Shown: positions 12,921 through 57,473, numbered from the stretch's first letter. The stretch is DNA of 64,000 nucleotides from Nitrosopumilus sp. (GCA_965249555.1 OZ252243.1:1664001-1728000), one strand, 5' to 3'. Notes: generated by a model not told the origin, from the letters alone. Program-made: numbers and translations.

Positions 12921-13847
12921 CTAGTTTTTTCTTATTTTACTAATTGATGCGTCAAGAATTTTCTTTCTACTAATTTCAAGTATCTTGAAAATTACCTCAG
13001 AAATATTATCTGTCTTGTTTCCTAAAATTCTGATGACTATGCCCGATTCATCTGGAAGAATAGATGTGCCCACTGAAACTGTATCTGTCTTTTTGATACT
13101 TTCATTAATTGAACTTTCCAGTTCAATTACAATTTCCTTTCTAGTCAAGATGTACATTGTTCCAACTGTGTTATGCTTTCCTAGTATTCCAAAATTTTTC
13201 AATTTTTGTATTTTTGGTTCAATTTTTGTATTTTCTAAAAATCTTATTTTTTTATCTTGGTTCTTACAGTGTGTTCTTAGGTAACAAATATCATATTCAA
13301 AAGATTCCTCCATAGCAACTCTTCCAGGAGTTAAAATTTCTGAATATACCAAAGTTGCATTATCGTGAATATTCAGATTAACTTTTTGATAATATCTTGA
13401 ATTCTTGTTTGGTATTATTTGATCAGGGATGTATTCAAAATAACAATTCTCATCAACTGTGATGTTTACAATTTGTGATGCAAAATTTGAATCCATACTG
13501 TAGATGCTAGTGGCACCTTGAGTTGTCATATGGGCAACGGCTTTATTTTTTAAGGATACATCAGTTCTGTACCTGTCTCCTTGCAGAATTCCTCCTGATG
13601 GAGAAATAACATAAAGATATGCCATTTCAGGAAGTGAGTTTTCAGGATATAATGCTCGTTGAAATTGTAACGGAACTTGAGAAAATTGTTTTGTAACAAT
13701 TGTCTTACCATTACTATCTTTTTGAAGTTCCAAATCAAGAATGCCTACTTTTCCTGATTTTCCAACTTCCAATTGTTTTATTTTAGAATCATATGTCTGA
13801 ATTTCTTTTGGTATGTCATCTGGTGTGTAATATTCTAGATTATTCAA
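12921..13847 (-). CDS. ureD: Urease accessory protein UreD
   Basis: SPSGGILQGD, TTQGAT, TPGRVAMEESF; position in urease cluster. Confidence 0.95.
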   Translation of the reverse strand: MNNLEYYTPDDIPKEIQTYDSKIKQLEVGKSGKVGILDLELQKDSNGKTIVTKQFSQVPLQFQRALYPENSLPEMAYLYVISPSGGILQGDRYRTDVSLKNKAVAHMTTQGATSIYSMDSNFASQIVNITVDENCYFEYIPDQIIPNKNSRYYQKVNLNIHDNATLVYSEILTPGRVAMEESFEYDICYLRTHCKNQDKKIRFLENTKIEPKIQKLKNFGILGKHNTVGTMYILTRKEIVIELESSINESIKKTDTVSVGTSILPDESGIVIRILGNKTDNISEVIFKILEISRKKILDASISKIRKN

Positions 13848-13850
13848 TAA

Positions 13851-14507
13851 TCACACCTTTTGTGTAAGTTCTGATTTTGGTGCAGAATCCAACAAGACAT
13901 CATGAATAATGTGTTCAGTTATCTTCATTATGCCTTTATCTGTTTTACAATTGATAAATTCAAATGGTTTTTCTTTTCTAATCTTTTCTGCATCTCTTTT
14001 CATGATATCAAGATCTGCACCAACCATAATGGCAAGATCTATCTTGTTAATTACTAAAAGATCACAACTCTCAATTCCTAATCCGCCCTTTCTTGGATAT
14101 TTGTCTCCGCCTGCAACATCAACTATGTAAATAAAATAATCTGCAAGAAGGGGACTGAATGTAGTTGTAATGTTGTCCCCACCACTTTCAATAATTATAA
14201 GGTCAAGATCAGGATGCTCCGATTCTATTTCTTCTATTACTGCAAGATTCATGGAAGGATCTTCTCTGATTGCAGTATGTGGACAACCGCCTGTTGCAAG
14301 ACCAATCACTAAATTTTCTGGAAGTAGTCCTCTTTTTGTAGCTAAATTATCCCTCATTCTGTCAGCGTCTTCTTTTGAAATTACATCATTTGAGATTATA
14401 CTTACACTGTATCCCTTTTCAGCCAACATTGGCACCAAGCGTTCAATTAACATGCTTTTACCAGAACCAACTGGTCCTCCAATACCGATTCTTGCGATGT
14501 GAGTCAT
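13851..14507 (-). CDS. ureG: Urease accessory GTPase UreG
   Basis: GGPVGSGKS, TGGCPHTAIRED, ESGGDN, NKID. Confidence 0.97.
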   Translation of the reverse strand: MTHIARIGIGGPVGSGKSMLIERLVPMLAEKGYSVSIISNDVISKEDADRMRDNLATKRGLLPENLVIGLATGGCPHTAIREDPSMNLAVIEEIESEHPDLDLIIIESGGDNITTTFSPLLADYFIYIVDVAGGDKYPRKGGLGIESCDLLVINKIDLAIMVGADLDIMKRDAEKIRKEKPFEFINCKTDKGIMKITEHIIHDVLLDSAPKSELTQKV

Positions 14508-14524
14508 GATGAAAAATCTAATTT

Positions 14525-15238
14525 TTATGTAATAAACATTTTAGAATCCATTTTTTCATGTGACATTTGAACAATATCTATTTGGGGTGCAAATTGCCAC
14601 ATTTCAGAAAGTGATTCATTCGAATATTCTTTGATAGTTTGACTGATGATTGGTTTTATATTGTGAATTATTTTTTGAGCTTCAAAATGTTGAATTAATC
14701 CTAATCGTAATGCTGCACCTACAACCCCTACAGTAAAACCATACAATAACATCGTCATGCTTTTTTCTTTTTTAATTTTTAATGCATTACAACAAATTGC
14801 AAATGCCACAGGAAATATCCCATGTACATTGTTTTTTGTTATGTTGTTTTTGTATTGATTTAAAATTTCATCATCTTTTACAAATTCTGAAACACACTTT
14901 ACTAACTGAACACCAGATCTTACTGATGAATTGCGTATTTCTTTAATTGATTTAGTAGCAAAAGCAATACTATCTGCTTCAATTACTTTTTCAAAATCAC
15001 ATTCATTTGCACTATCAAATGCATTTGCAAGTGCAACACAATCTGATGGGCCTATCTGTTGAATAATGTTGGTTTTGATAATTTCTATCAAGTCAGTCAT
15101 GCCTTGAATTTTTTTTTCTGTGAAAAGAAATTCTAATCCATTTGAAGTAGCAAAAATGCCTGTAGGGAAAAATGAGTCAGATAATTGCATTACTCCCAAC
15201 TCTTGTTCTATCTCATCAATGTTCATGTACATCTGCAC
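14525..15238 (-). CDS. ureF: Urease accessory protein UreF
   Basis: QLSDSFFPTG, C-terminal HEKMDSKMFIT. Confidence 0.95.
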   Translation of the reverse strand: MQMYMNIDEIEQELGVMQLSDSFFPTGIFATSNGLEFLFTEKKIQGMTDLIEIIKTNIIQQIGPSDCVALANAFDSANECDFEKVIEADSIAFATKSIKEIRNSSVRSGVQLVKCVSEFVKDDEILNQYKNNITKNNVHGIFPVAFAICCNALKIKKEKSMTMLLYGFTVGVVGAALRLGLIQHFEAQKIIHNIKPIISQTIKEYSNESLSEMWQFAPQIDIVQMSHEKMDSKMFIT

Positions 15239-15701
15239 CTAATTGAGGGGAAAATATTTGCTCTTCTACTGTCATGTCAATATGGCTGATAATGCTTTGA
15301 AACAATTTTGCGAATATTTCCTTTTCTGAGTCTGCTTGAATTGGAAATGAAATCTCATCTCCTTGAATGGATATGGGTCTGTGTCTGTTTCCAATTATAT
15401 GTCCTAAAAGTACCATCACATCTGTCATCTTTTCATTTTTTAGTTTAACTGTAATTATTTTTTCTGGTAATTGTTCTACAACAATTTTTGTATCTCCATT
15501 TTTGATGATATCTCCATTGTGAAGTTTTACACCTGGGTCTAAATTCAAACCTACATCTGTTCCACGATCTGTCTTTCTTCTCAAAATTCTTTTTTCTAAT
15601 TCTATTCGTGAAATCTTGAGTCTTTCAAAACTTTCATTTCTTAAATCATCAAATTCTTTATCATGAAAAATATTACCTATGGGAGAATTAACTTCTATCA
15701 C
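15216..15701 (-). CDS. ureE: Urease accessory protein UreE
   Basis: [22 protein letters not shown]. Confidence 0.93.
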
Positions 15702-15720
15702 AAGTAACTTTGTTTTTTGC

Positions 15721-15735
15721 CAAAGTTATACTTTG
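15721..15735. promoter_or_regulatory. Palindrome CAAAGT-TAT-ACTTTG in the divergent ureE/ureA promoter
   Basis: 6-bp perfect inverted arms in a 91-bp intergenic region. Confidence 0.45.
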
Positions 15736-15792
15736 TTCGACTCTTTTACCATTTTAATGATTAAATACTATAATTCACTATCCAATTCATTG

Positions 15793-16092
15793 ATGCTTAC
15801 TCCTAGAGAATTAGAAAAACTAAATGTTTTTGTTACATCAGAACTTGCTCGTAGAAGAAAAAATCGTGGACTAAAACTTAATCATCCTGAGGCTGTATCT
15901 ATTCTTGCTGATCATATTTTAGAAGGTGCTAGAGATGGAAGAAATGTTCCAGAACTTATGAGCTCCGGAAAAAATGTTTTATCAAAAGATGATGTGTTAC
16001 CTGGAGTTGCAGAACTGATTGCTTCTATTCAAGTGGAGGCAACATTTGAAGATGGAACTAAACTGGTAACAGTTCATGACCCTATTGTGTGA
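15793..16092 (+). CDS. ureA: Urease subunit gamma
   Basis: [10 protein letters not shown]...[10 protein letters not shown]...[16 protein letters not shown]; start corrected from the ORF track. Confidence 0.97.
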
Positions 16093-16097
16093 TAATT

Positions 16098-16466
16098 ATG
16101 ATTCCTGGCGAATACTTCCCATCTAATGAATCCATAATTGCTAATGTGGGAAAATCAACTACAACTGTTAGTGTTAGAAATACTGGGGATAGACCAATAC
16201 AGGTAGGATCACATACCCACTTTTTTGAAGTAAACAAGGCTCTTGAATTTCAGAGGAAACAGTCTTACGGATATCATCTCAATATTCCTGCTGGAACATC
16301 AGTGAGATTTGAACCAGGAGACACAAAAGAAATTGAACTAACAGAATTTGGTGGAAAAAAAATTGTTTATGGATTTAGTGGTCTGGTAAATGGAAGTCTA
16401 GATGAAAAGCAAGAAGAGGCATTCAAAAAAGTTACTGAAAAAGGATTCAAAGGGATGACACAATGA
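16098..16466 (+). CDS. ureB: Urease subunit beta
   Basis: [29 protein letters not shown]. Confidence 0.97.
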
Positions 16467-18175
16467 CTTTGAACATTCCAAGAAAAACATACGTTGATTT
16501 GTTTGGTCCGACTGTGGGTGACCGAATCCGTCTTGCAGATACTGATTTGATTATTGAAATTGAAAAAGACTTGATCAAATATGGTGATGAGGCTGTATTT
16601 GGTGGAGGAAAGAGCATACGAGATGGGCAGGGGCAAGCAAGTGGAGTGTCTAGAGCAGAGTCACTTGATCTTGTAATTACTAACGCAATTGTAATGGATC
16701 CAATTTTAGGAATTATCAAAGCAGACATTGGAATAAAAGATGGAAAAATTGTCGGGATAGGAAATGCTGGTAATCCTGATATCATGGATGATATTGATAT
16801 GGTAATTTCTTCAAACACTGAGATAATTGCAGGTGAGCATACAATTTGTACTCCTGGAACAATTGATTCACATGTTCATTTTATTTCTCCTCAACAAGCA
16901 ATACATGCAATTTGTAATGGTACCACTACAATGATTGGTGGCGGAACTGGCCCTGCTGATGGAACAAATGCAACAACATGCACTCCTGGTAAATGGAATA
17001 TTCATAAAATGATTGAATCCGTTGATGAATTACCACTGAACTTTGGATTTCTTGCTAAAGGAAATGATTCCCGTGAAACTGCATTACTTGAACAAATTGA
17101 AGCAGGAGCTTGTGGGCTAAAACTACATGAAGACTGGGGTTCAACTCCTGCTACGATTGATTCTGCTTTGAGGGTTGCAGACAAAACTGATACTCAAGTT
17201 GCAATCCATACAGATACTCTCAATGAATGTGGATTTGTTGATGACACAATTGAAGCAATTGCTGGAAGAACAATTCACACTTATCATACTGAAGGAGCAG
17301 GTGGTGGACATGCTCCAGATATTATGAAAATTGCAGGTGAAGAAAATATACTTCCTTCGTCTACAAATCCTACAAGACCATTTACAGTAAATACATTAGC
17401 AGAACATCTTGACATGATGATGGTTTGCCATCATCTAAATTCATCAGTTCCTGAAGATGTGTCCTTTGCAATGTCTAGAATTCGTGGTGAGACTATTGCT
17501 GCAGAGGACGTATTACATGATATTGGAGTTTTGAGTATGATGTCTTCTGATAGTCAAGCTATGGGACGAGTTGGAGAAGTTACAACCAGAAATTGGCAGA
17601 CTGCTGATAAAATGAAAAAGATGGCTGGCACATTACCTGAAGACAATGCTCAAAATGATAATTTCAGAGTAAAAAGATATCTTGCTAAAATTACAATAAA
17701 TCCTGCCATAACTCATGGGGTTTCAGATTATGTGGGATCATTGCAGCCTGGGCGATTAGCTGATATTGTAATTTGGTCCCCTGCATTTTTTGGAGTCAAA
17801 CCAAAAATGATCATTAAAGGCGGTTTTATTGCATATTCCCTTATGGGTGATCCAAATGCATCAATTCCTACTACTGAACCTGTCATGTATCGCCCTATGT
17901 TTGGAGCCCTTGGCCAAACAAAATATTCCACTTCTGTAACATTCACATCTCAACTGGCACTAGACAAGGGTATTGAATCTGAAATCAATTCAAAAAAGAA
18001 ATTGGTTCCTGTGAAAAATTGTCGTTCTATTGGAAAGAAAGACATGTTGTATAATGATCTTACTCCAAACATTGAGGTAAATCCTGAAACATATGAAGTA
18101 AAAGTTGATGGGAAAATTGCAACTACAGATCCAGCAGACAAAGTTTCTATGTCGAGACTATACAATTTATTTTAA
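16463..18175 (+). CDS. ureC: Urease subunit alpha
   Basis: All Ni ligands intact: DSHVH, GLKLHED, IHTD, HTYHTEG, flap [13 protein letters not shown]. Confidence 0.98.
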
Positions 18176-18194
18176 AAGTTTTTAAACTATATGT

Positions 18195-18953
18195 TTAGTT
18201 TATTGAAAATAATTTATTATCTAATCCAATTGTAATTACAATATTGAGACCAATTATGAAAGTTATACTAGCTATTGTGTATCTTAGATATTTAGTAACA
18301 TAATTAATTTTTGATAATAAAATAAATGGTAATCCCATAATGCCACTAGCAACAGTCATACCAATTATACTGCCTATGCCAAATAAAATTAGAAAATAAA
18401 TCATCATATCAAAACCATTCATTGTAGATGCAAATAATGCAACAAGACTACCACTACCTGCAATACCGTGAACACAACCAATTAGATATGCTTTGTGACC
18501 ATGTTTGTGATTTTCATTGTGTTCATGAGAATGTGTGTGAGAAATTCCGTTTGAATGTGTGTGAGGATGAACATGTTTTTGTTTAAAGATACTTTTGTTT
18601 GTAAATGTAAAAATTGCTAAAGTAATCAACATTAAACCAACAAGCACTTCTGCACTAATAAAAAAATCATTAGGTATGTTTAATGATAAACCTGCAATCA
18701 ATAACCCAATTAGAATAATGCTGGATGTATGTCCCATTCCCCAAAGTGCTCCTCTTAAAGAAGAGATAATGGTAAGATTTTGCAAGTCTCGTTTTTTTGT
18801 ACTCTTTGAATTATCGTTATTTCTTAATAGTTGAGTGGAAACTGCACTAAGATGATCAGGCTCAAAAGCATGTAATACTCCAATCATCAGACCTGCAATT
18901 ATAATTAAAAAAGGATTGTTGGCTTGTAACATTCCCATTATTGTGTCAATCAA
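18195..18953 (-). CDS. High-affinity nickel transporter (UreH/NiCoT-like)
   Basis: HAFEPDH, WGMGHT, His-rich loop, HGIAGSG. Confidence 0.9.
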   Translation of the reverse strand: MIDTIMGMLQANNPFLIIIAGLMIGVLHAFEPDHLSAVSTQLLRNNDNSKSTKKRDLQNLTIISSLRGALWGMGHTSSIILIGLLIAGLSLNIPNDFFISAEVLVGLMLITLAIFTFTNKSIFKQKHVHPHTHSNGISHTHSHEHNENHKHGHKAYLIGCVHGIAGSGSLVALFASTMNGFDMMIYFLILFGIGSIIGMTVASGIMGLPFILLSKINYVTKYLRYTIASITFIIGLNIVITIGLDNKLFSIN

Positions 18954-19365
18954 TTATTCCACTACTCCTATATGCTGTTTGTTTCTGTCCATCAAGAGAA
19001 TATTGAACAATTTGAATGGGTGTTGTAATGAACATTTGTTCTTTATCCATATCTTTGGTTGTAATTGTAAAAGTTAGTTTTCTCAAGCTTTCAGGAACTC
19101 CAATCATTACTTGATGTGGTAAGAGCATATCTGGTATTTGTTTTTGTATTTCGTTGATTGTTTTACGTTCATTTAAAGAAGTTATGATATAAGCTACAAA
19201 CAACCCAAGCGTCTCGTTTATGTTTAATCGCATATTGTTTGATAGGTGATTTTTGATTAATTGTGTAGATTCGAAGAAAATTGTTTCATCAGATTTTTCA
19301 TAATAAAATATCTTGGTAAATGGCTTGATATCAGAATCTCCCTGTACCAATACTTCAATTTTCAT
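18946..19365 (-). CDS. Divergent urease gamma-subunit-like protein
   Basis: MRLNINE...LLPHQVMIGVPE aligns with UreA LKLNHPE...[12 protein letters not shown]. Confidence 0.75.
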   Translation of the reverse strand: MKIEVLVQGDSDIKPFTKIFYYEKSDETIFFESTQLIKNHLSNNMRLNINETLGLFVAYIITSLNERKTINEIQKQIPDMLLPHQVMIGVPESLRKLTFTITTKDMDKEQMFITTPIQIVQYSLDGQKQTAYRSSGIID

Positions 19366-20480
19366 TAATCTCTCTTTGGAATTTTAGATGTTGGATTACC
19401 AAAACTGTATGTGTTTCCAGTACCCATGTATGCCTTTGGTCTTACAGGATCTCCTCCCTCCAAACCTCTCTTTGTTAATGATAATCCTGCCAATAGTTCA
19501 ATAACTAATCTTTGTCCTAATCCAGATGTGATTCCTCCATTGTAAGAACTTGAATCACTGACATCATATGCTGGAGCAATTTCTACCAAATCCATTGCAA
19601 ATCTATCAGGATCAAATGATTTTGATAATAGACGAATCATTCTAATTCCTTCTCTTGATGTAAGTCCATTTGGTTCTGGTTCTCCCGTACCTGGTGCATA
19701 AGCAGGATCAAACGAATCAATATCCCAGCTAAGATAGACAGCATCTGTTCCATCATTTGCTCTGTCAGCTATTTCTTTTGCAATAACATCAATTCCTAAT
19801 TCTTCAACATCAAGCATTGTAAACCATTGGAAATCTTGGTCTGACATCCATTTGTACAAATCACGTCCTGGCCAATATCCTCTTGGGCCAACAAGCGAGT
19901 AGTTCTTTCCTTTAAGACAACCCATCTCCATTATTCTTCTAATGTGAGCTCCATGATCATACTTGAAACCAGTTAGTCCTTGTGGTGCACAATCAGCGTG
20001 CGTATCAAAATGAATCATGCCTATGTTTTTGTATTTTTTCTGAAATGCTCTAACGTTTGCATAAGTAATTGAGTGATCCCCTCCAAGCATTACAGGAATA
20101 CCATCTGCCTCTAACACTTCCTTAACTTTTAGAGTCATTCTCTTGTGTGATTCTATAACATCTCCTGGTGAAACTATAACGTCACCATAATCTACTGTTC
20201 GAAAAGTTCCAAATGGATCTGCACCCGTTTCAATATTGAATCGTTCAAAAGGAGGTGATGGAATTGTAGATGCAGCTCTAATTGCTCTTGGTCCATATCT
20301 TGCTCCGGGACGAATAGTGGTACCAAAGTCAAATGGTTCCCCAATAATTGCAACATCTGGTTTTACTTCAACTAATTCTTTGTGTGTCTTTACCCAGGGA
20401 AGATGTAAAAATGTATTAATTCCTACAAATGGTGCAACATCTGCACCTTGAAAATCATCACCATAAAATTCCATGCCCAT
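19365..20480 (-). CDS. Ureohydrolase (agmatinase/guanidinobutyrase-like), substrate unknown
   Basis: RPGARYGP, GGDHS, DTHAD, DIDSFDP, GTGEPE, VEIAP; GPRGYWP motif. Confidence 0.92.
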   Translation of the reverse strand: MGMEFYGDDFQGADVAPFVGINTFLHLPWVKTHKELVEVKPDVAIIGEPFDFGTTIRPGARYGPRAIRAASTIPSPPFERFNIETGADPFGTFRTVDYGDVIVSPGDVIESHKRMTLKVKEVLEADGIPVMLGGDHSITYANVRAFQKKYKNIGMIHFDTHADCAPQGLTGFKYDHGAHIRRIMEMGCLKGKNYSLVGPRGYWPGRDLYKWMSDQDFQWFTMLDVEELGIDVIAKEIADRANDGTDAVYLSWDIDSFDPAYAPGTGEPEPNGLTSREGIRMIRLLSKSFDPDRFAMDLVEIAPAYDVSDSSSYNGGITSGLGQRLVIELLAGLSLTKRGLEGGDPVRPKAYMGTGNTYSFGNPTSKIPKRD

Positions 20481-20519
20481 TTTAAATCAAATTCTATTCA
20501 AGACTTTGATAATTAAAGA

Positions 20520-20536
20520 TTTCAAGTAAAGTACGT
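20520..20536 (-). promoter_or_regulatory. Shared upstream motif ACGTACTTTACTTGAAA
   Basis: 39 nt upstream of the ureohydrolase ATG; 16/17 identical to 23194-23210. Confidence 0.75.
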
Positions 20537-20638
20537 ATCCTGTATTTTAATTATTAATAATCCTCATATTGCAAAAAAATTAAATTATGTGTAATGTACG
20601 ATTTAAATATAAAAATAGTATCCCTGTGAAATATCAAT

Positions 20639-21877
20639 ATGATATTACAAAATTCAAAAAATGCATGGTATTTTTTGAATCAAGGTTTGGAAGCGGTTTA
20701 TTACAGTCAATTTAAAAAAGCTGTTTTAAAATTTAACAAGGCTATTTCTCTAGAACCTGAAAATACTGTGGCACAACTTCATAAAGGTAGAACATTATAT
20801 AAAATGGAAAATTTTCAAAATGCTGTAATTTGTTTTGACAATATCTTGTCTATAGATCCAAAAAGTTTAGATGCTTTATACAACAAAGGTCTTGCACTTG
20901 AAAAGGTAGAAAAATATGAAGAAGCGATATCTTCTTTCAAAAAATCTCTTGAAATTGATTCACAATATTCTGATTCATTAACATCCATGGGGTTGTGTTT
21001 TAGTAAATTAGACCGTAATGAAGAAGCTCTAAAAATAATTGATCAAGTTTTGTTGAAAAATGCAAAAAACTCTGCTGCTCTTTACGCTAAAAGTTTGATT
21101 CTGGGAAGATTAGAAAAAAGTTCAGAGTCAATACTATTCTTACAGCAAGCTATTGATGAAGATTCTAGACAATCTGATATTCTATATGAGAAAGGGCAAG
21201 AACTTACAAAGCAAGGAAAGCATACTGTAGCAATAAAATTCTACACCAAGGCTTTAGAGATAGATAGTAAAAACACTAAGGCATTAGTGGCCAAGGGCTG
21301 GACGCTTGATTTTGCAGGATTTTCCAACAAAGATATTTTTGTATTTTATGATGAGGCTCTAAAAATTGATCCAAGATGCACTGAGGCTCAATTCAATAAA
21401 GGAATAGTTTTGGATAGAACCCGTCTGTACAAAAAGGCTATAGAATGTTTTGATAAAATTTTAGAATATGACACTGATAATGTTCGGGCACTTTACAGTA
21501 AAGGTACATCTTTATCTCAATTGAAAAAGTTTGGCCAAGCAAGATTCTATTTTGAATGTGCATTAGAGCTTGAACCAGAAAATGTTGTTGCTTTGGGTAG
21601 TATGGTATGGTTTCTAGAACATTCAAAAAAATATGATGAGGCGCTTGAATACTGTGAAAAAGCATTAAAAATCAATCCAAATTACGTATATGCAATAAGC
21701 TATAAGGGAAAATTACTTTTATTATTAAAAAAATATGAAGAATCTCTAAAATGTTACAACAAAGCAATAGAACTTGATCCAAATAATCAAACTGCGCTTT
21801 TTCACCGATTTAAAGTACAAGATAAATTAAACAAAATGAAACAAGAGTCATTTTTAAAAAGACTTACAAAATTATGA
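20639..21877 (+). CDS. Tetratricopeptide repeat protein
   Basis: About 11 tandem 34-aa TPR units. Confidence 0.92.
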   Translation: MILQNSKNAWYFLNQGLEAVYYSQFKKAVLKFNKAISLEPENTVAQLHKGRTLYKMENFQNAVICFDNILSIDPKSLDALYNKGLALEKVEKYEEAISSFKKSLEIDSQYSDSLTSMGLCFSKLDRNEEALKIIDQVLLKNAKNSAALYAKSLILGRLEKSSESILFLQQAIDEDSRQSDILYEKGQELTKQGKHTVAIKFYTKALEIDSKNTKALVAKGWTLDFAGFSNKDIFVFYDEALKIDPRCTEAQFNKGIVLDRTRLYKKAIECFDKILEYDTDNVRALYSKGTSLSQLKKFGQARFYFECALELEPENVVALGSMVWFLEHSKKYDEALEYCEKALKINPNYVYAISYKGKLLLLLKKYEESLKCYNKAIELDPNNQTALFHRFKVQDKLNKMKQESFLKRLTKL

Positions 21878-21944
21878 TACTTTTAAGAAAAAATAAAAAT
21901 TAAATTTCGAATATTTTTATATTTGTTCTTTGTACTGATTAGTA

Positions 21945-22196
21945 ATGCAGAATGTTAGCACACAAGAAGATGTCAATAGAGAATCAAAAAGAATAATCAA
22001 TGCATTATATGGGGATGTAAGCGACTTTAGGGTCAATGAAACATTTCAAATTCCTGAAAAAGGACCTAGAGAAGCTTGGGATGTTCAAGTTAATTTTATG
22101 CTGAATGCTTTGAAATATACTGTGGACCTTGAAATCCAAGAGAAAGAAGGTCATGTAACTAGTGCACGATTAATTGATACAATGACCCCCCTCTAA
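21945..22196 (+). CDS. Hypothetical protein
   Basis: 83-aa ORF, coding-like composition. Confidence 0.75.
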   Translation: MQNVSTQEDVNRESKRIINALYGDVSDFRVNETFQIPEKGPREAWDVQVNFMLNALKYTVDLEIQEKEGHVTSARLIDTMTPL

Positions 22197-22238
22197 TTTT
22201 TTCAATATTTTATAAATTCAAATTATTATAAATGAACT

Positions 22239-22748
22239 TTACAGTGTTAAGATTTCTTTTGCAGCTTTAATCTTTACAAGTAATTCGTTAATGTAGCTAT
22301 CTGCAAATCTTTCAAAACTAGTAATTCCTTGGTTCTTTTTCTGTTTTTTGTACTCTTCTTGAAGCCAATTAAAATCTGATTCCTTTAGACTAATGGAATT
22401 ATTTTGAGCATCGTTTTTTGATTCAAGCATGTTAACGATAAAATAACTTACAAATTTTGTAAAGCATTTTACGCCATATTTTTTTTCATATTCATCCCCA
22501 AATTTTTTATGATTTTTTACTAACCAATCTTTTACATCCGATCTAATTGTTATCGTGTTATATCTACCCGACAAATCTAATTTTATTTTATGAGATTCTA
22601 CTGAATAATGCCCTCTCTTAATTTCATTCATTATGATGATTAAGGTACTAGGTAGAAACATTCCGGGATAGCTTTTGTCGGTTGCTTCTTGCAATCTAGT
22701 TGTAATAACTGGTTTCATGCCAAATGTCGAATATCCTTTGCCTGGCAT
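22239..22748 (-). CDS. Putative tandem ribbon-helix-helix DNA-binding protein
   Basis: Repeated beta-helix-helix-like units (YSTFGM / YNTITI / NSISL followed by GV/I.xF..F). Confidence 0.55.
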   Translation of the reverse strand: MPGKGYSTFGMKPVITTRLQEATDKSYPGMFLPSTLIIIMNEIKRGHYSVESHKIKLDLSGRYNTITIRSDVKDWLVKNHKKFGDEYEKKYGVKCFTKFVSYFIVNMLESKNDAQNNSISLKESDFNWLQEEYKKQKKNQGITSFERFADSYINELLVKIKAAKEILTL

Positions 22749-22796
22749 ATGAAATGGATCTAACTGGTGTTTATATTATTTTATGAATTTGGAAAG

Positions 22797-22967
22797 TTAA
22801 GTTTGCTTTTTTTTCAATTCTTTAATTAATCGAATTAATACCCAAAATGTTCCCATTACTACAATCCCTATGCCGAGACCACTAGAAAAAGCATTATCTG
22901 AACCAGATTGATTTAAACCCAGTCCTAAGATAATTAGAATAACTGCAAAAGCATATTGTTTATCCAC
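22797..22967 (-). CDS. Two-TM microprotein (56 aa)
   Basis: Manual translation MDKQYAFAVILIILGLGLNQSGSDNAFSSGLGIGIVVMGTFWVLIRLIKELKKKQT. Confidence 0.55.
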   Translation of the reverse strand: MDKQYAFAVILIILGLGLNQSGSDNAFSSGLGIGIVVMGTFWVLIRLIKELKKKQT

Positions 22968-23193
22968 GTTCTGCCTAAGAGGATTAATTTAATAACATTT
23001 TGAATTTTAAATTTGAGCAAAATTTTAGTAATGAAAATTTAATTATATCTTTTTGTAATCTAACAATAAGAGATTCATAATTTCATTATTTTACAAAATC
23101 ATTTAATTTATCCATTAAATTTCTGTTAAAACTACAAAATATGATGAATTATTTTGTTAAATGTACTATACGAATCATTTATTCCTCAAAAAA

Positions 23194-23210
23194 ACGTACT
23201 ATACTTGAAA
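23194..23210 (+). promoter_or_regulatory. Shared upstream motif ACGTACTATACTTGAAA
   Basis: 39 nt upstream of the symporter ATG; second GTACTATAC core at 23163-23171. Confidence 0.75.
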
Positions 23211-23249
23211 AATTCAATACTGATATAGTTTGATAAGTTCAATGAGATT

Positions 23250-24854
23250 ATGGTGGAGATGGATGGGTTTGGTATTGCCGTTGCCGCTTTTATTGTCATT
23301 ACACTTCTTGTTGGTGTATTCGCCGGTAAGCTAGTAAAAAATAGTGGTAAGCGACTGATCGTTGCAGGAAAAAGTCTACCTTTGTTTATGGTTGGAACTA
23401 TGCTTGCAGCACAAGCAGTTGATGGAAATTCATCGTTAGGAAATGTTGCACTTGTTTTTGAATTTGGATTTTGGGCAGGAGCAGTTATTCCGATTGGTTT
23501 AGGATTGTGTCTGTTTGTAACAGCTGCATTCTATGCTAAACCCCTAAACAAAATGTCAATGATTACATTACCTGATTTCTATTTCAGAAGATTTGGAAAT
23601 GGAGCAGAAGGTCTTTCCGGAATTCTTATGATAATTAGTTTTCTAATTCTTGTTGCAGGCAATTTAGCTGCTAGTGGATTTATTTTGGAAGTTGTGTTTG
23701 GTATAAATTATTTCTACGGTATTGCAATTTCAGCTATAGTTGTGGTAATCTATACTGTTGCTGGCGGATTATTTGCATCAGCCTATACAAATCTGTTCCA
23801 AGTTTATCTTGCAATTGGTGCATTTTGGGCTGGATTCCTTTTCTTTTATGGGGGATTTGCAGATACTCCTTGGGATGTCATTTACAACAACGCACCACCA
23901 GAGTTCATGGACCTGTCTGGATTGTACGACATGGCGAATGGAGCGCTGATTAATTGGGGTGCTATTCTTGCACTAGGACTGGGAGATATAGTTGCGCTTG
24001 ACTTTATGGAGCGAGTGTTTTCAGCTAAGAACCCCAAAACAGCACAAAGAGGTGCTTTAATGGGCGGTGCACTAACTATGTTTACAGTAATTCCAACTAG
24101 CATGTTGGGAATTGTAGCATTTTTCTATCTCCCAGCAGATACAATACCAGATTTAGCATTACCTTTACTATCCACAGAAATCTTACCATTTGCAATTGGT
24201 GCAGCAATACTGATGGGAGTAGTTGGGGCATCAATGTCTACTGCAAGTGGAGGACTATTGGCAATATCTAGTGTAATTTCCAGAAACATGATGCAGAGAA
24301 TTATCAGAAGACGATGGCAACAAAAACCAAATTGGAGCGATAGTCAATTACTCAAAGTTACTCGTCTTGTAATTATCCCAATGATGGTAATTGGAACTGC
24401 AATTGGTTATTTCGTACCAGCTCCTGGAATTTATCTCATCTTAGCATTTGACATAGTTTTTGCCGGAGCATTTGCTCCTCTTACATTAGGTTTGTTCTGG
24501 AAAAAGTCAAACATGCCAGCAGCCGTTGTAGCTCTTGTTGTTGGTTCACTAATACGATTCATCTTCTTCTTTACAATGCCAGAAGAATGGGCAGGATTAG
24601 ATACAATGATACCCCCAATCATTGCATTTGCTCTGTTCTTTGTAGTTGCACAAGCAACCCAAGGAAAGTATCCAGGAAAAGCAAGACACGATGTACGAGA
24701 CTATGTGCCACCTGAAGAAGATGTAATTGCAGGAGAAGATTTGTTACACTTCAAAAATGATACTTCGGCTACAAGTGCAGGTGGACCAAGCTCTGATACA
24801 CCAGGACCTGACACACCTGAACCCGATGATGCTACAAGTAAGGAAGTAACGTAG
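23250..24854 (+). CDS. Sodium:solute symporter (SSS/SLC5 family)
   Basis: VAGKSLP, ITLPDFYFRRFG, YTVAGGL, ERVFSAK, ASMSTAS; about 13 TMs. Confidence 0.92.
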   Translation: MVEMDGFGIAVAAFIVITLLVGVFAGKLVKNSGKRLIVAGKSLPLFMVGTMLAAQAVDGNSSLGNVALVFEFGFWAGAVIPIGLGLCLFVTAAFYAKPLNKMSMITLPDFYFRRFGNGAEGLSGILMIISFLILVAGNLAASGFILEVVFGINYFYGIAISAIVVVIYTVAGGLFASAYTNLFQVYLAIGAFWAGFLFFYGGFADTPWDVIYNNAPPEFMDLSGLYDMANGALINWGAILALGLGDIVALDFMERVFSAKNPKTAQRGALMGGALTMFTVIPTSMLGIVAFFYLPADTIPDLALPLLSTEILPFAIGAAILMGVVGASMSTASGGLLAISSVISRNMMQRIIRRRWQQKPNWSDSQLLKVTRLVIIPMMVIGTAIGYFVPAPGIYLILAFDIVFAGAFAPLTLGLFWKKSNMPAAVVALVVGSLIRFIFFFTMPEEWAGLDTMIPPIIAFALFFVVAQATQGKYPGKARHDVRDYVPPEEDVIAGEDLLHFKNDTSATSAGGPSSDTPGPDTPEPDDATSKEVT

Positions 24855-56031: not shown

Positions 56032-57473
56032 GTATGAATCAAGCACTTAGATGTATTTTGCCATCTCAGAAAACATGTTCAATTCCCTTATTCTCCATGT
56101 CTCAAAGCATGTGAGAAAGACTGAGATCATCCTCATGCCCTGATCACTCTTCATCTGCCCGCGAACATTCCTCTGCATCACGCACTTTCGAATGGAATTC
56201 TCTGCATCATTGTTAGTTGACGGGACATCACCATCCATGACAAACGTAAACATGCTGTTCCTTGCAGTCTTTAGCTTCTTGCCAAACTGAACCATCTCCA
56301 TATCACCTTTCAAATATCGTGCAATGATACGGTCTAGCTGTTTTAGTAAATCATCCCTGTACGTTTCCCGCCGTTTTGTATGACGATTACCTACACTCCA
56401 AACCCTGGCATGACCTAGCATATCTGAGAGTTTCTCGTATAGAATCCTGGCCTTTTTGTCCTTTGATTTTATTGCCAGATATTTGGCATCGCGCTGCAGG
56501 TGTGCGGTGCATCTCTGCTTTGTGTTATCACAAAATACTGTCCTGTACGGAGCATATCCGTCAGACACTAGAGTTCCTTTGAATTTCTTCCAGTACTTTT
56601 TTAGAACATTGGCACCTCTGCTGTACTCCAAGGCATACTGTGCACTAGTCTTGCTTCTTGCAACCCACATCCATCCAGTATTTCCATCAATTGAAAATCC
56701 TGTCTCATCGATTCCGAGAATCTTTTCAGTCACGATTTCGCTGTGGATTGTATTGTAAAATGACTCTAACATCACACTACCGTTGCGAAGAATGGATTGT
56801 ACGGTTGTATTGCTGATTTCTAATCCATATCTTTCATAGAGTGTGGTTCTGATGGTATCGTATGGCATTCTCTTTGAGAACAGTGAGACGACCTCACGTG
56901 TCACTGAACCATCAAAACATCCATGTGGTGGAAGGTTTCCCGTGGTTTGAAAATTATCAGAACAGTCCATGCAGATGTATTGATTCAAAACATGCTCAGT
57001 TATACCGTAGGGTGTTGGTGGAGGAATCTCAACCATTATCCTTTTGCAGGTTTTGGTTTGATGAATATTTTCACTACCGCATTTGGGACATGCATCTGAT
57101 CTGTGGTGTTTGGTGCTAGTTGGTCTGAATTTCTGTGTCTTGCCAACGTGTCCTGCTATTCCACCACGTCTTGATTTGCCTGGCTGTCTGTGTTGTCTTT
57201 TTTGCTTTCTCCATTCAAGGGAATTCTTTGATGGCGGAGAGTGCGCATTCTCATAATATGACAGCTTTTTTTGCAGTTCCTTGTTTGATTCTATGAGATT
57301 CTCTATGATTAATTTTAGTTGTTTTATCACTTCGTCTTGTTGTTTTGTCTTTTTTTGTAGCTGTATGATGATTTTCTCATGACCACAACCTGACATGTTT
57401 TGTATGATGATTTAGTTGATCTTAGATCTTTTTGTGTAATAGTGTTGATTTGTGCGTGAAGGTTGATACATAC
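56032..57473 (-). mobile_element. IS66-family insertion sequence (single-ORF, ISBst12-like), 1442 bp
   Basis: TIRs GTATGAATCAAGC / GTATGTATCAACC; 8-bp TSD TATTGTCC at 56024-56031 and 57474-57481. Confidence 0.93.
56047..57396 (-). CDS. IS66 transposase
   Basis: HSPPS, CPKCG, DETG, SDGY..Y, QRC.AHL.R, TNNDAE..IR. Confidence 0.95.
   Translation of the reverse strand: MSGCGHEKIIIQLQKKTKQQDEVIKQLKLIIENLIESNKELQKKLSYYENAHSPPSKNSLEWRKQKRQHRQPGKSRRGGIAGHVGKTQKFRPTSTKHHRSDACPKCGSENIHQTKTCKRIMVEIPPPTPYGITEHVLNQYICMDCSDNFQTTGNLPPHGCFDGSVTREVVSLFSKRMPYDTIRTTLYERYGLEISNTTVQSILRNGSVMLESFYNTIHSEIVTEKILGIDETGFSIDGNTGWMWVARSKTSAQYALEYSRGANVLKKYWKKFKGTLVSDGYAPYRTVFCDNTKQRCTAHLQRDAKYLAIKSKDKKARILYEKLSDMLGHARVWSVGNRHTKRRETYRDDLLKQLDRIIARYLKGDMEMVQFGKKLKTARNSMFTFVMDGDVPSTNNDAENSIRKCVMQRNVRGQMKSDQGMRMISVFLTCFETWRIRELNMFSEMAKYI

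Follow-up and report, generated by a model that had tools for sequence, protein, structure and literature searches.

Ammonia-oxidising archaea (AOA) are among the most abundant microbes of oceans and soils, and the energy substrates accepted for them comprise ammonia and urea, and in a few of them cyanate. The described enzymes closest to the one reported here are ureohydrolases of the arginase superfamily, which release urea from guanidino compounds. Growth of comammox Nitrospira on guanidine was a notable substrate extension. In the available part of Palatinszky et al. 2024 (PMC11410670) the guanidine specificity of the guanidinases is ascribed to a tryptophan (Synechocystis Trp305, N. inopinata Trp313), and Synechocystis Thr97 is also given a role. 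In the guanidinobutyrase GbuA of Pseudomonas aeruginosa an arginine from the neighbouring subunit, Arg72, is proposed to cap the substrate carboxylate (excerpts of PMC9772407). The characterised guanidinase and metformin hydrolase are nickel enzymes, according to the excerpted literature and also to PDB titles. Here we describe an arginase-family ureohydrolase, called UH below, and a sodium:solute symporter (SSS) which lie beside the urease genes of a Nitrosopumilus sp. genome. The DNA analysed, called the window, is a stretch of 64 kb (G000:C1:1664001-1728000; handles of this kind are our own) inside a complete genome of 2.23 Mb. This genome contains an archaeal amoA (E 1.5e-117), which identifies the host as an AOA, and its nearest protein relatives are labelled Nitrosopumilus.

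On balance we think it probable that UH and the SSS constitute one conserved uptake and hydrolysis module tied to urease, in which the CHT1-like SSS imports a small guanidino compound, UH frees urea from it and urease gives ammonia. A guanidino acid would be a less likely cargo than a cationic or neutral compound such as guanidine, an alkylguanidine or agmatine. Cleavage by UH, a ureohydrolase with a binuclear metal site and perhaps loaded with nickel, would give urea together with an amine or ammonia, and the ammonia released from urea by urease would feed both ammonia oxidation and assimilation. We infer the direction of transport and the class of substrate. The comparative evidence that UH, SSS and urease act as a functional unit is strong. 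The sequence-only reading of the window had proposed such a pathway, from a guanidino compound through urea to ammonia; that interpretation is supported in part, and comparative genomics backs a functional tie between UH, SSS and urease more firmly than could be seen from the window. The main genes, mapped from a listing of open reading frames (ORFs) and from Pfam and NCBIfam profile scans, are the following.

19365-20480, minus strand: UH, arginase-family ureohydrolase of 371 amino acids (PF00491, E 1.4e-79)
23250-24854, plus strand: SSS symporter of 534 amino acids, CHT1/SLC5A7-like (PF00474, E 1e-28)
ORF 15679-16092, likely start 15793, plus strand: ureA (PF00547)
16089-16466, plus strand: ureB (PF00699)
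16463-18175, plus strand: ureC (PF00449/PF01979)

Each protein was searched for in one sample of 151 Nitrosopumilaceae genomes, with these results.

UH orthologs (77-95% identity): 66/151 genomes
ureC: 83/151 genomes
window-type SSS (51-89% identity): 64/151 genomes
DUR3-type genes: 43/151 genomes
UT-type genes (PF03253): 0/151 genomes
NicO-like transporter: 72/151 genomes

The counts include two genomes flagged as unpublished: G092, which has UH, ureC, SSS and the transporter, and G093, which has none of them. Without these two no count falls by more than one and the conclusions stay the same, and neither genome is the sole basis of any claim. UH is accompanied by ureC in 64 of 66 genomes, the exceptions being G097 (76% complete) and G106 (85% complete), and it is found in 2 of the 68 ureC-negative genomes. 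The SSS is accompanied by ureC in 63 of 64. UH and SSS occur together in 63 genomes, UH occurs without SSS in G018, G106 and G133, and SSS without UH in G119 (60% complete). Within the 83 ureC-positive genomes both are present in 62, UH only in two, SSS only in one and neither in 18. UH is found in 18 of 27 genera and is polymorphic inside 15 of these 18 by a hand count; the SSS is found in the same 18 genera, which implies many joint gains or losses of the pair. Retention of the pair only where urease is present would be explained if urease is needed to free the nitrogen from urea made by UH.

UH and SSS are also physically linked. A spacing of 2-8 kb between SSS and UH is kept even in genomes whose ureC is 0.1-1 Mb distant, namely G110, G030, G014, G006, G080, G065, G135 and G094. 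Two of these are placed as follows.

G110: UH at 1.421 Mb, SSS at 1.426 Mb, ureC at 1.213 Mb
G030: UH at 2.015 Mb, SSS at 2.010 Mb, ureC at 1.156 Mb

The linkage is looser in G083, with 25 kb between the two genes. In 32 loci from other AOA (Nitrososphaeraceae, Nitrosocosmicus and metagenome-assembled genomes (MAGs) of Nitrosomirales type) UH is 72-82% identical to that of the window and the SSS is present in 23, the remaining nine all having less than 3.6 kb of upstream sequence. No gene of the set is as well conserved as UH: taking G110 as an example, identity is 92% for UH, 85% for UreC, 72% for the SSS and 41% for the transporter, and the constraint on UH is unusually strong for an accessory gene. 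In the cross-genus comparison with G135 UH is 90% identical and UreC 75%. Metatranscriptome contigs of relatives cover UH nearly end to end and the SSS partly, which is weak evidence; only 5-13% of the sampled words were found in the RNA runs, and contigs from relatives indicate that the genes occur in RNA libraries but say nothing of operon structure or expression level.

The same association is seen in a second phylum. Among 121 sampled Halobacteria genomes, which include the seed genome G151 picked for having UH, UH is present in nine and the SSS in the identical nine. The urease alpha subunit is found in 34 of the 121, including all nine, and 25 of the 34 have neither UH nor SSS. In 42 of 48 haloarchaeal loci the SSS (34-40% identical) lies within 0.5-3.3 kb of UH; in G200, one of the nine genomes, both are present 87 kb apart. 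The urease operon is adjacent in 6 of the 48 loci. A protein resembling the urea-binding protein UrtA is encoded within 6 kb of ureC in four of five haloarchaeal genomes, with matches under the curated cut-off, and it is this gene, not the SSS, that adjoins ureC there. In both phyla, then, a recognised type of urea transporter adjoins urease, and the window-type SSS goes with UH. The two haloarchaeal loci that were annotated also encode a protein of 352 amino acids with AbrB/MazE and PhoU domains between SSS and UH (L049:6773-7831 and L084:6687-7745), which has no AOA counterpart and is likely to be a dedicated regulator in these two loci.

The SSS belongs to the sodium:solute symporter family (PF00474, 100.8 bits against a cut-off of 22.8). 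Its best solved relatives are choline transporters (CHT1, E 1.3e-23), although the distance to CHT1 is too great for a substrate to be read from it, and homolog searches return generic names alone, such as sodium:solute symporter family protein and Na+/proline symporter. The possibility that it groups with the urea transporter DUR3 was checked and is not borne out: it is 29% identical to the DUR3-type protein of its own genome over 223 amino acids, which is not the close similarity that marks the DUR3 type, and in other genomes it stands beside UH and the DUR3-type genes beside ureC. The host has two tandem DUR3-type genes outside the window (G000:C1:1786639-1788471 and 1789444-1791444; L004:1369-3678 and L005:1252-3255), at a distance of about 106 kb from ureC; their mutual identity is 55%, and a long C-terminal extension is present in the first. 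These are probably the two dur3 copies of marine AOA mentioned in the excerpts of PMC10753782. No UT-type gene (PF03253) was matched in the host genome or in the 151 Nitrosopumilaceae genomes. DUR3-type genes, found in 43 of these, are accompanied by ureC in all 43 and usually stand directly beside it, for example in G142, G014, G110 and G080. In-frame stops interrupt the DUR3-type gene of G124 (C1:128497-130449), whose window-type SSS match has none, the SSS of G041 (C1:980107-981669) and two copies of the NicO-like gene described below (G068:C2:129823-130569 and G116:C12:79582-80328); they may mark decaying copies or sequencing errors.

These distributions bear on the main competing explanation, in line with present AOA annotation, in which the SSS is a urea:Na+ symporter and UH an internal agmatinase-like enzyme that makes urea from an endogenous compound, the two sharing a urea regulon with no import of guanidino compounds from outside. 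The ureC-positive genomes divide into 27 with both DUR3 and SSS, 16 with DUR3 only, 36 with SSS only and four with neither, so that 79 of 83 have one or the other, as would be expected of a urea carrier. The SSS is the sole candidate from a known family in the 36, no UT-type gene having been found in any of the 151 genomes. The available part of PMC11131427 calls the SSS a low-affinity urea transporter clustered with 'SpeB', the databases name UH an agmatinase, and urea and guanidinium are similar in shape, which makes a urea carrier plausible here. Against this, the SSS tracks UH and not urease: 18 of the 83 ureC-positive genomes lack both, 16 of these 18 having DUR3, and of the 34 urease-positive Halobacteria 25 are without both, whereas the SSS accompanies UH in 9 of 9. 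A urea-making enzyme has no evident need of one particular urea importer, and the genes that do stand beside ureC are DUR3 in AOA and UrtA-like in haloarchaea. The SSS is moreover remote from DUR3 and nearest to cation carriers. AOA that lack any known urea transporter are nevertheless able to hydrolyse urea, as far as the excerpts of PMC10753782 go, and a missing DUR3 therefore does not force the SSS to be a urea carrier. Taken together, we regard this explanation as possible but rather unlikely. A carrier of both urea and guanidinium would reconcile the two patterns.

UH is a member of the arginase/ureohydrolase superfamily (PF00491, 267.9 bits against a cut-off of 22). The motifs GGDHS, DTHAD and DID are present, and the metal ligands H136, D159, H161, D163, D253 and D255 are invariant in an alignment of 42 rows (A3). 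The database name of the protein is 'agmatinase', yet it scores under both curated agmatinase cut-offs, with 156.6 bits against 174.3 for TIGR01230 and 205.5 against 302 for NF002564. A further check asked whether UH is the sole housekeeping agmatinase of the genome, and it is not, as there are two PF00491 genes. The second is a separate gene of SpeB type.

G000:C1:~1945169-1946044 (L002:1426-2301): SpeB-type paralog of 291 amino acids (PF00491)

UH is a second paralog and not the housekeeping agmatinase. It is 29-36% identical to the SpeB-type genes of Nitrosopumilaceae genomes, which appear irrespective of urease, whereas UH is almost confined to urease-positive genomes. In phmmer searches of solved structures GbuA tops the list (4.7e-50), followed closely by the guanidinases 7esr (7.7e-49) and 9fek (1.5e-47); the guanidinopropionase GpuA and proclavaminate amidinohydrolase (PAH) are likewise among the top matches, and Escherichia coli SpeB reaches just 2.3e-34. 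An AlphaFold2 model of UH (pLDDT, the predicted local distance difference test score, of 81) gives as top Foldseek match the N. inopinata guanidinase 9fek (E 7.7e-27, template modelling (TM) score 0.77). Guanidinase, GpuA, PAH, metformin hydrolase and GbuA all fall between E 8e-27 and 6e-25, and no substrate is assignable from this search because the ranking among ureohydrolases is too flat.

The agmatinase name raises the question of whether UH is a biosynthetic enzyme of polyamine metabolism, an agmatinase or aminopropylagmatinase isozyme without a part in nitrogen or energy supply, extra speB copies then being no more than extra capacity for polyamine synthesis. The excerpts of PMC10753782 do read the 2-3 speB copies of most AOA as polyamine synthesis, and UH is of the same superfamily. 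An isozyme for biosynthesis would be expected to occur irrespective of urease, however, and UH is found in just 2 of 68 ureC-negative genomes. Its tight linkage to a transporter in two phyla, its failure to reach the agmatinase equivalog cut-offs and its distinct active-site signature also speak against this role, and we would hardly expect it to be true.

The active-site signature is found after the motif PGTG. The next residue is a glutamate in UH (PGTG-E-PEP), a threonine in GbuA, GpuA and PAH, and a tryptophan in both guanidinases. This glutamate (E267 in A3) is nearly invariant over the UH clade of AOA and haloarchaea. The clade also has a 4-residue acidic insertion at the loop that bears Arg72 in GbuA, and Arg72 itself aligns with a serine of UH adjoining the insertion, so that the arginine cap is lacking. 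A second insertion of 8-10 residues is found close to the C-terminus. The glutamate and both insertions are common to the AOA and haloarchaeal sequences. The threonine of the guanidinase G-T-T loop (Synechocystis Thr97 position) is kept in UH; it is not exclusive to guanidinases, because GpuA has it too. The extra glutamate by the metal site, the acidic insertion in place of the Arg72 cap and the kinship of the SSS to choline carriers may be taken as hints, from sequence comparison, of a cationic or neutral substrate.

The closest relatives of UH outside the AOA are haloarchaeal 'agmatinase family proteins' of equal length, with 49-53% identity. A FastTree phylogeny was made from AOA, haloarchaeal and metagenomic sequences and rooted on the SpeB-type paralog of the host genome; it was built without characterised references and its support values were not read. 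In this tree the Glu-type clade is monophyletic and splits into a haloarchaeal and an AOA branch, and a Thr-type metagenomic clade is its sister. Within the AOA the order is Nitrosomirales-like, then Nitrososphaeraceae, then Nitrosopumilaceae, which looks vertical.

The remaining genes of the island are the following.

12921-13847, minus strand: ureD (PF01774), accessory gene for nickel insertion
13851-14507, minus strand: ureG (PF02492), accessory gene for nickel insertion
14525-15238, minus strand: ureF (PF01730), accessory gene for nickel insertion
15216-15701, minus strand: ureE (PF02814/PF05194), accessory gene for nickel insertion
18195-18953, minus strand: NicO/NiCoT-like metal (nickel/cobalt) transporter, a His-rich membrane protein of 252 amino acids
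18946-19365, minus strand: UreA-like protein of 139 amino acids (PF00547, E 3e-6)
20639-21877, plus strand, divergent from UH: tetratricopeptide-repeat (TPR) protein (TPR families)
21945-22196, plus strand: orf83, small conserved protein with no family match
22239-22748, minus strand: orf169, conserved Nitrososphaerota-only protein with no family match

UH, the UreA-like gene and the NicO-like gene form a three-gene operon on the minus strand that is convergent on ureC. The sequence-only reading had described a tightly coupled operon of these three beside complete ureABC and ureDEFG, with a symporter 2.8 kb off and no DUR3 or UT gene in the window, and the gene map agrees on every point. All the genes were placed as claimed by ORFs and by Pfam and NCBIfam scans. 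The UH stop codon (TAA) overlaps the UreA-like ATG by 1 nt, and the UreA-like stop overlaps the TTG start of the transporter by 8 nt. From SSS start to UH start is 2770 nt, the SSS is the sole PF00474 gene of the window, and PF03253 has no match genome-wide.

The fold of the UreA-like protein is that of urease gamma. The protein matches PF00547 with 27.9 bits (cut-off 23.9) and aligns along the full length of the true UreA with 17-20% identity. Its AlphaFold2 model (pLDDT 88.8) shows the gamma fold with an added N-terminal beta-hairpin, and the top 18 Foldseek matches listed from the PDB are ureases without exception; their bacterial chains are gamma subunits and have TM scores of 0.75-0.78. 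The protein does not reach the equivalog score of a functional UreA (26.1 bits against 123 for NF009712), and the true ureA sits in the ureABC operon. A complex prediction for UH and the UreA-like protein scored 0.00 without controls, and speaks neither for nor against binding. A role for it as an adaptor between UH and urease or the urease maturation proteins is speculation. The UreA-like gene is directly downstream of UH in 23 of 29 other Nitrosopumilaceae loci. Within 1.5 kb of UH in these loci the UreA-like gene, the transporter and the TPR gene are each found in 23 of 29. A UreA-like query matched 24 of the 32 other AOA loci, the match in L101 being the true ureA.

The sequence-only reading had named the third gene of the operon a nickel transporter. 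The NicO-like protein has a His-rich loop and the motif H-x4-D-H, which we take to mark the NiCoT family, and atlas searches match it to NicO/HoxN clusters at 0.96-0.99; NCBIfam gives weak RcnA and DmeF matches (RcnA E 0.004) and Pfam no match even at E 5. It is therefore a candidate member of the NicO/NiCoT family. Homologs also occur in urease-negative genomes. The transporter is present in 54 of 66 UH-positive genomes, in 5 of 19 with urease only and in 13 of 66 with neither urease nor UH. The idea that it is exclusive to UH or urease was rejected on account of these 13.

These genes suggest another explanation for the distribution of UH, namely that it is confined to urease-positive genomes mainly through borrowing the nickel insertion proteins UreDEFG, the UreA-like protein serving as docking adaptor. 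The gamma fold of the UreA-like protein and its translational coupling to UH fit such a scheme, as do the position of the NicO-like gene next in the operon, its enrichment with UH (54/66 against 5/19) and the nickel found in the characterised guanidinase and metformin hydrolase (excerpted sources, as above). Nickel-loading of UH is plausible by analogy with these two enzymes. His-rich tails occur on nickel-handling proteins, and P0014, a metagenomic relative of UH (74% identical, 421 amino acids), has a C-terminal His-rich tail that is missing from the window UH; the tail can be counted on the side of the borrowing scheme and is a hint about the metal of UH. In haloarchaea, however, none of 48 UH loci has a UreA-like or NicO-like neighbour, yet the UH-positive genomes there are all urease-positive, and the metal ligands do not tell nickel from manganese enzymes. 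We consider borrowed nickel insertion very unlikely as the main cause of the urease restriction; it is in any case compatible with the uptake and hydrolysis module and does not exclude it.

Several observations weigh against that module, in addition to the DUR3-or-SSS pattern and the published urea transporter label set out above. Fisher values for the co-occurrence overstate it because related genomes are not independent, and part of the co-occurrence of UH and SSS is co-inheritance because the genes are physically linked. The guanidinase tryptophan (Synechocystis Trp305/N. inopinata Trp313) was not found in UH, which has the glutamate instead. The NicO-like transporter is missing from 12 of 66 UH-positive genomes, and the nickel link is only contextual because of these 12 and of the 13 of 66 genomes that have the transporter with neither urease nor UH. 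No conserved gene for disposal of an organic remainder was seen near UH. This last absence fits guanidine itself as the substrate, as an argument from absence.

Guanidine as substrate leads to the boldest version of the proposal. Glu-type UH would then be a second, independently evolved archaeal guanidinase or small-alkylguanidine hydrolase, nickel-loaded by the proteins of urease maturation, for which the UreA-like protein would serve as adaptor, and fed by the first guanidinium:Na+ importer of SSS type. We hold this full version to be distinctly unlikely. If it were true, guanidine-type compounds would be direct energy and nitrogen substrates for a large share of marine and soil AOA, which would contradict the current statement that AOA lack guanidine-degradation genes. 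That statement appears in the available part of Palatinszky et al. 2024 (PMC11410670), where such genes were found in none of the AOA; likewise, a blastp search of floodplain nitrifier MAGs found no guanidine-degradation genes (PMC12625717).

The two-gene core defined here, a Glu-type ureohydrolase with a CHT1-like SSS, occurs in some 40% of the Nitrosopumilaceae sampled, as well as in Nitrososphaeraceae, Nitrosocosmicus and MAGs of Nitrosomirales type, and the pair is conserved out to the Halobacteria. If the uptake and hydrolysis module is real, abundant nitrifiers would have another food source, with a guanidine-type nitrogen compound converted to urea and then to ammonia. Strains with UH and SSS (such as G013 and G110) and urease-positive strains without either (such as G038 and G142) exist within single genera, so the proposal is testable. 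In the full-text literature (subscription journals and supplements aside) we found no paper that separates UH from SpeB or shows its restriction to urease-positive genomes, and no proposal of an imported guanidino substrate for AOA. Expression of an SSS/'SpeB' cluster in soil is reported in the excerpts of PMC11131427. The annotations 'speB copy number' and 'SSS urea transporter' in AOA surveys lump different genes.

Two further neighbours are candidate regulators of the UH and SSS pair. A gene for orf83 stands beside UH in 28 of the 32 other AOA loci and in 7 of the 29 Nitrosopumilaceae loci, which have short flanks, and orf169 stands beside the SSS in 16 of the 32. Neither has a family match in Pfam (E up to 5) or NCBIfam. 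An atlas search with orf169 returned only archaeal (Nitrososphaerota) hypothetical clusters and a weak match to NikA-like proteins of ribbon-helix-helix type (0.87).

The remainder of the window contains housekeeping genes, one tRNA and an IS66-family transposase (56047-57396, minus strand, PF03050, E 5.5e-42) about 31 kb from the urease island. The longest ureA ORF has 38 extra codons ahead of the Pfam match and runs over the divergent start of ureE; translation probably begins with the ATG at 15793. The 5_ureB_sRNA family was described in Helicobacter; within ureC, at 16623-16906 on the minus strand, an antisense Rfam match to it (RF02514) scores 43.6 bits, the gathering score being 40, and conserved urease coding sequence alone may account for this match. 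No riboswitch was found in the 64-kb window. A scan for sigma-70 promoters and terminators, which is ill-suited to archaea, gave fewer sites than in shuffled sequence.

UH can be compared with several known systems. With SpeB it has in common the superfamily and the metal ligands, and agmatine remains a possible substrate; it differs in falling under both curated cut-offs and in that its host genome holds a SpeB-type gene of its own. GbuA (3nio) and GpuA (3nip) of P. aeruginosa resemble it as catabolic ureohydrolases which free urea from an imported guanidino compound, and the gpu locus also has a dedicated transporter gene. UH differs from both in having glutamate and not threonine after PGTG, and from GbuA in having serine at the Arg72 cap position, with an identity of about 31-35%. 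The window SSS has the family fold of DUR3 and CHT1 (PF00474), with CHT1 as its top solved relative. It differs from DUR3 in its gene neighbour, which is UH for the SSS and ureC for DUR3-type genes.

The guanidine hydrolases GdmH (Synechocystis Sll1077, 7esr/7oi1, and N. inopinata 9fek) differ from UH in the tryptophan that is replaced by glutamate, in an identity of about 31-32% and in the lack of the two clade-specific insertions. The partner of UH is an SSS, whereas that of the guanidinase is an APC permease or an ABC system (available part of PMC11410670), and no riboswitch was found in the window of UH. The likenesses are the arginase fold with phmmer E values of 1e-47 to 1e-49, the G-T-T loop, the catalytic histidine and glutamate, and the P-E-P that follows the specificity position. 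The nickel context is also similar, given here by the NicO-like gene in the UH operon. The logic is the same as well, that of a nitrifier for which a guanidino compound is turned into urea and, through urease, into ammonia (PMC11410670, in the part available).

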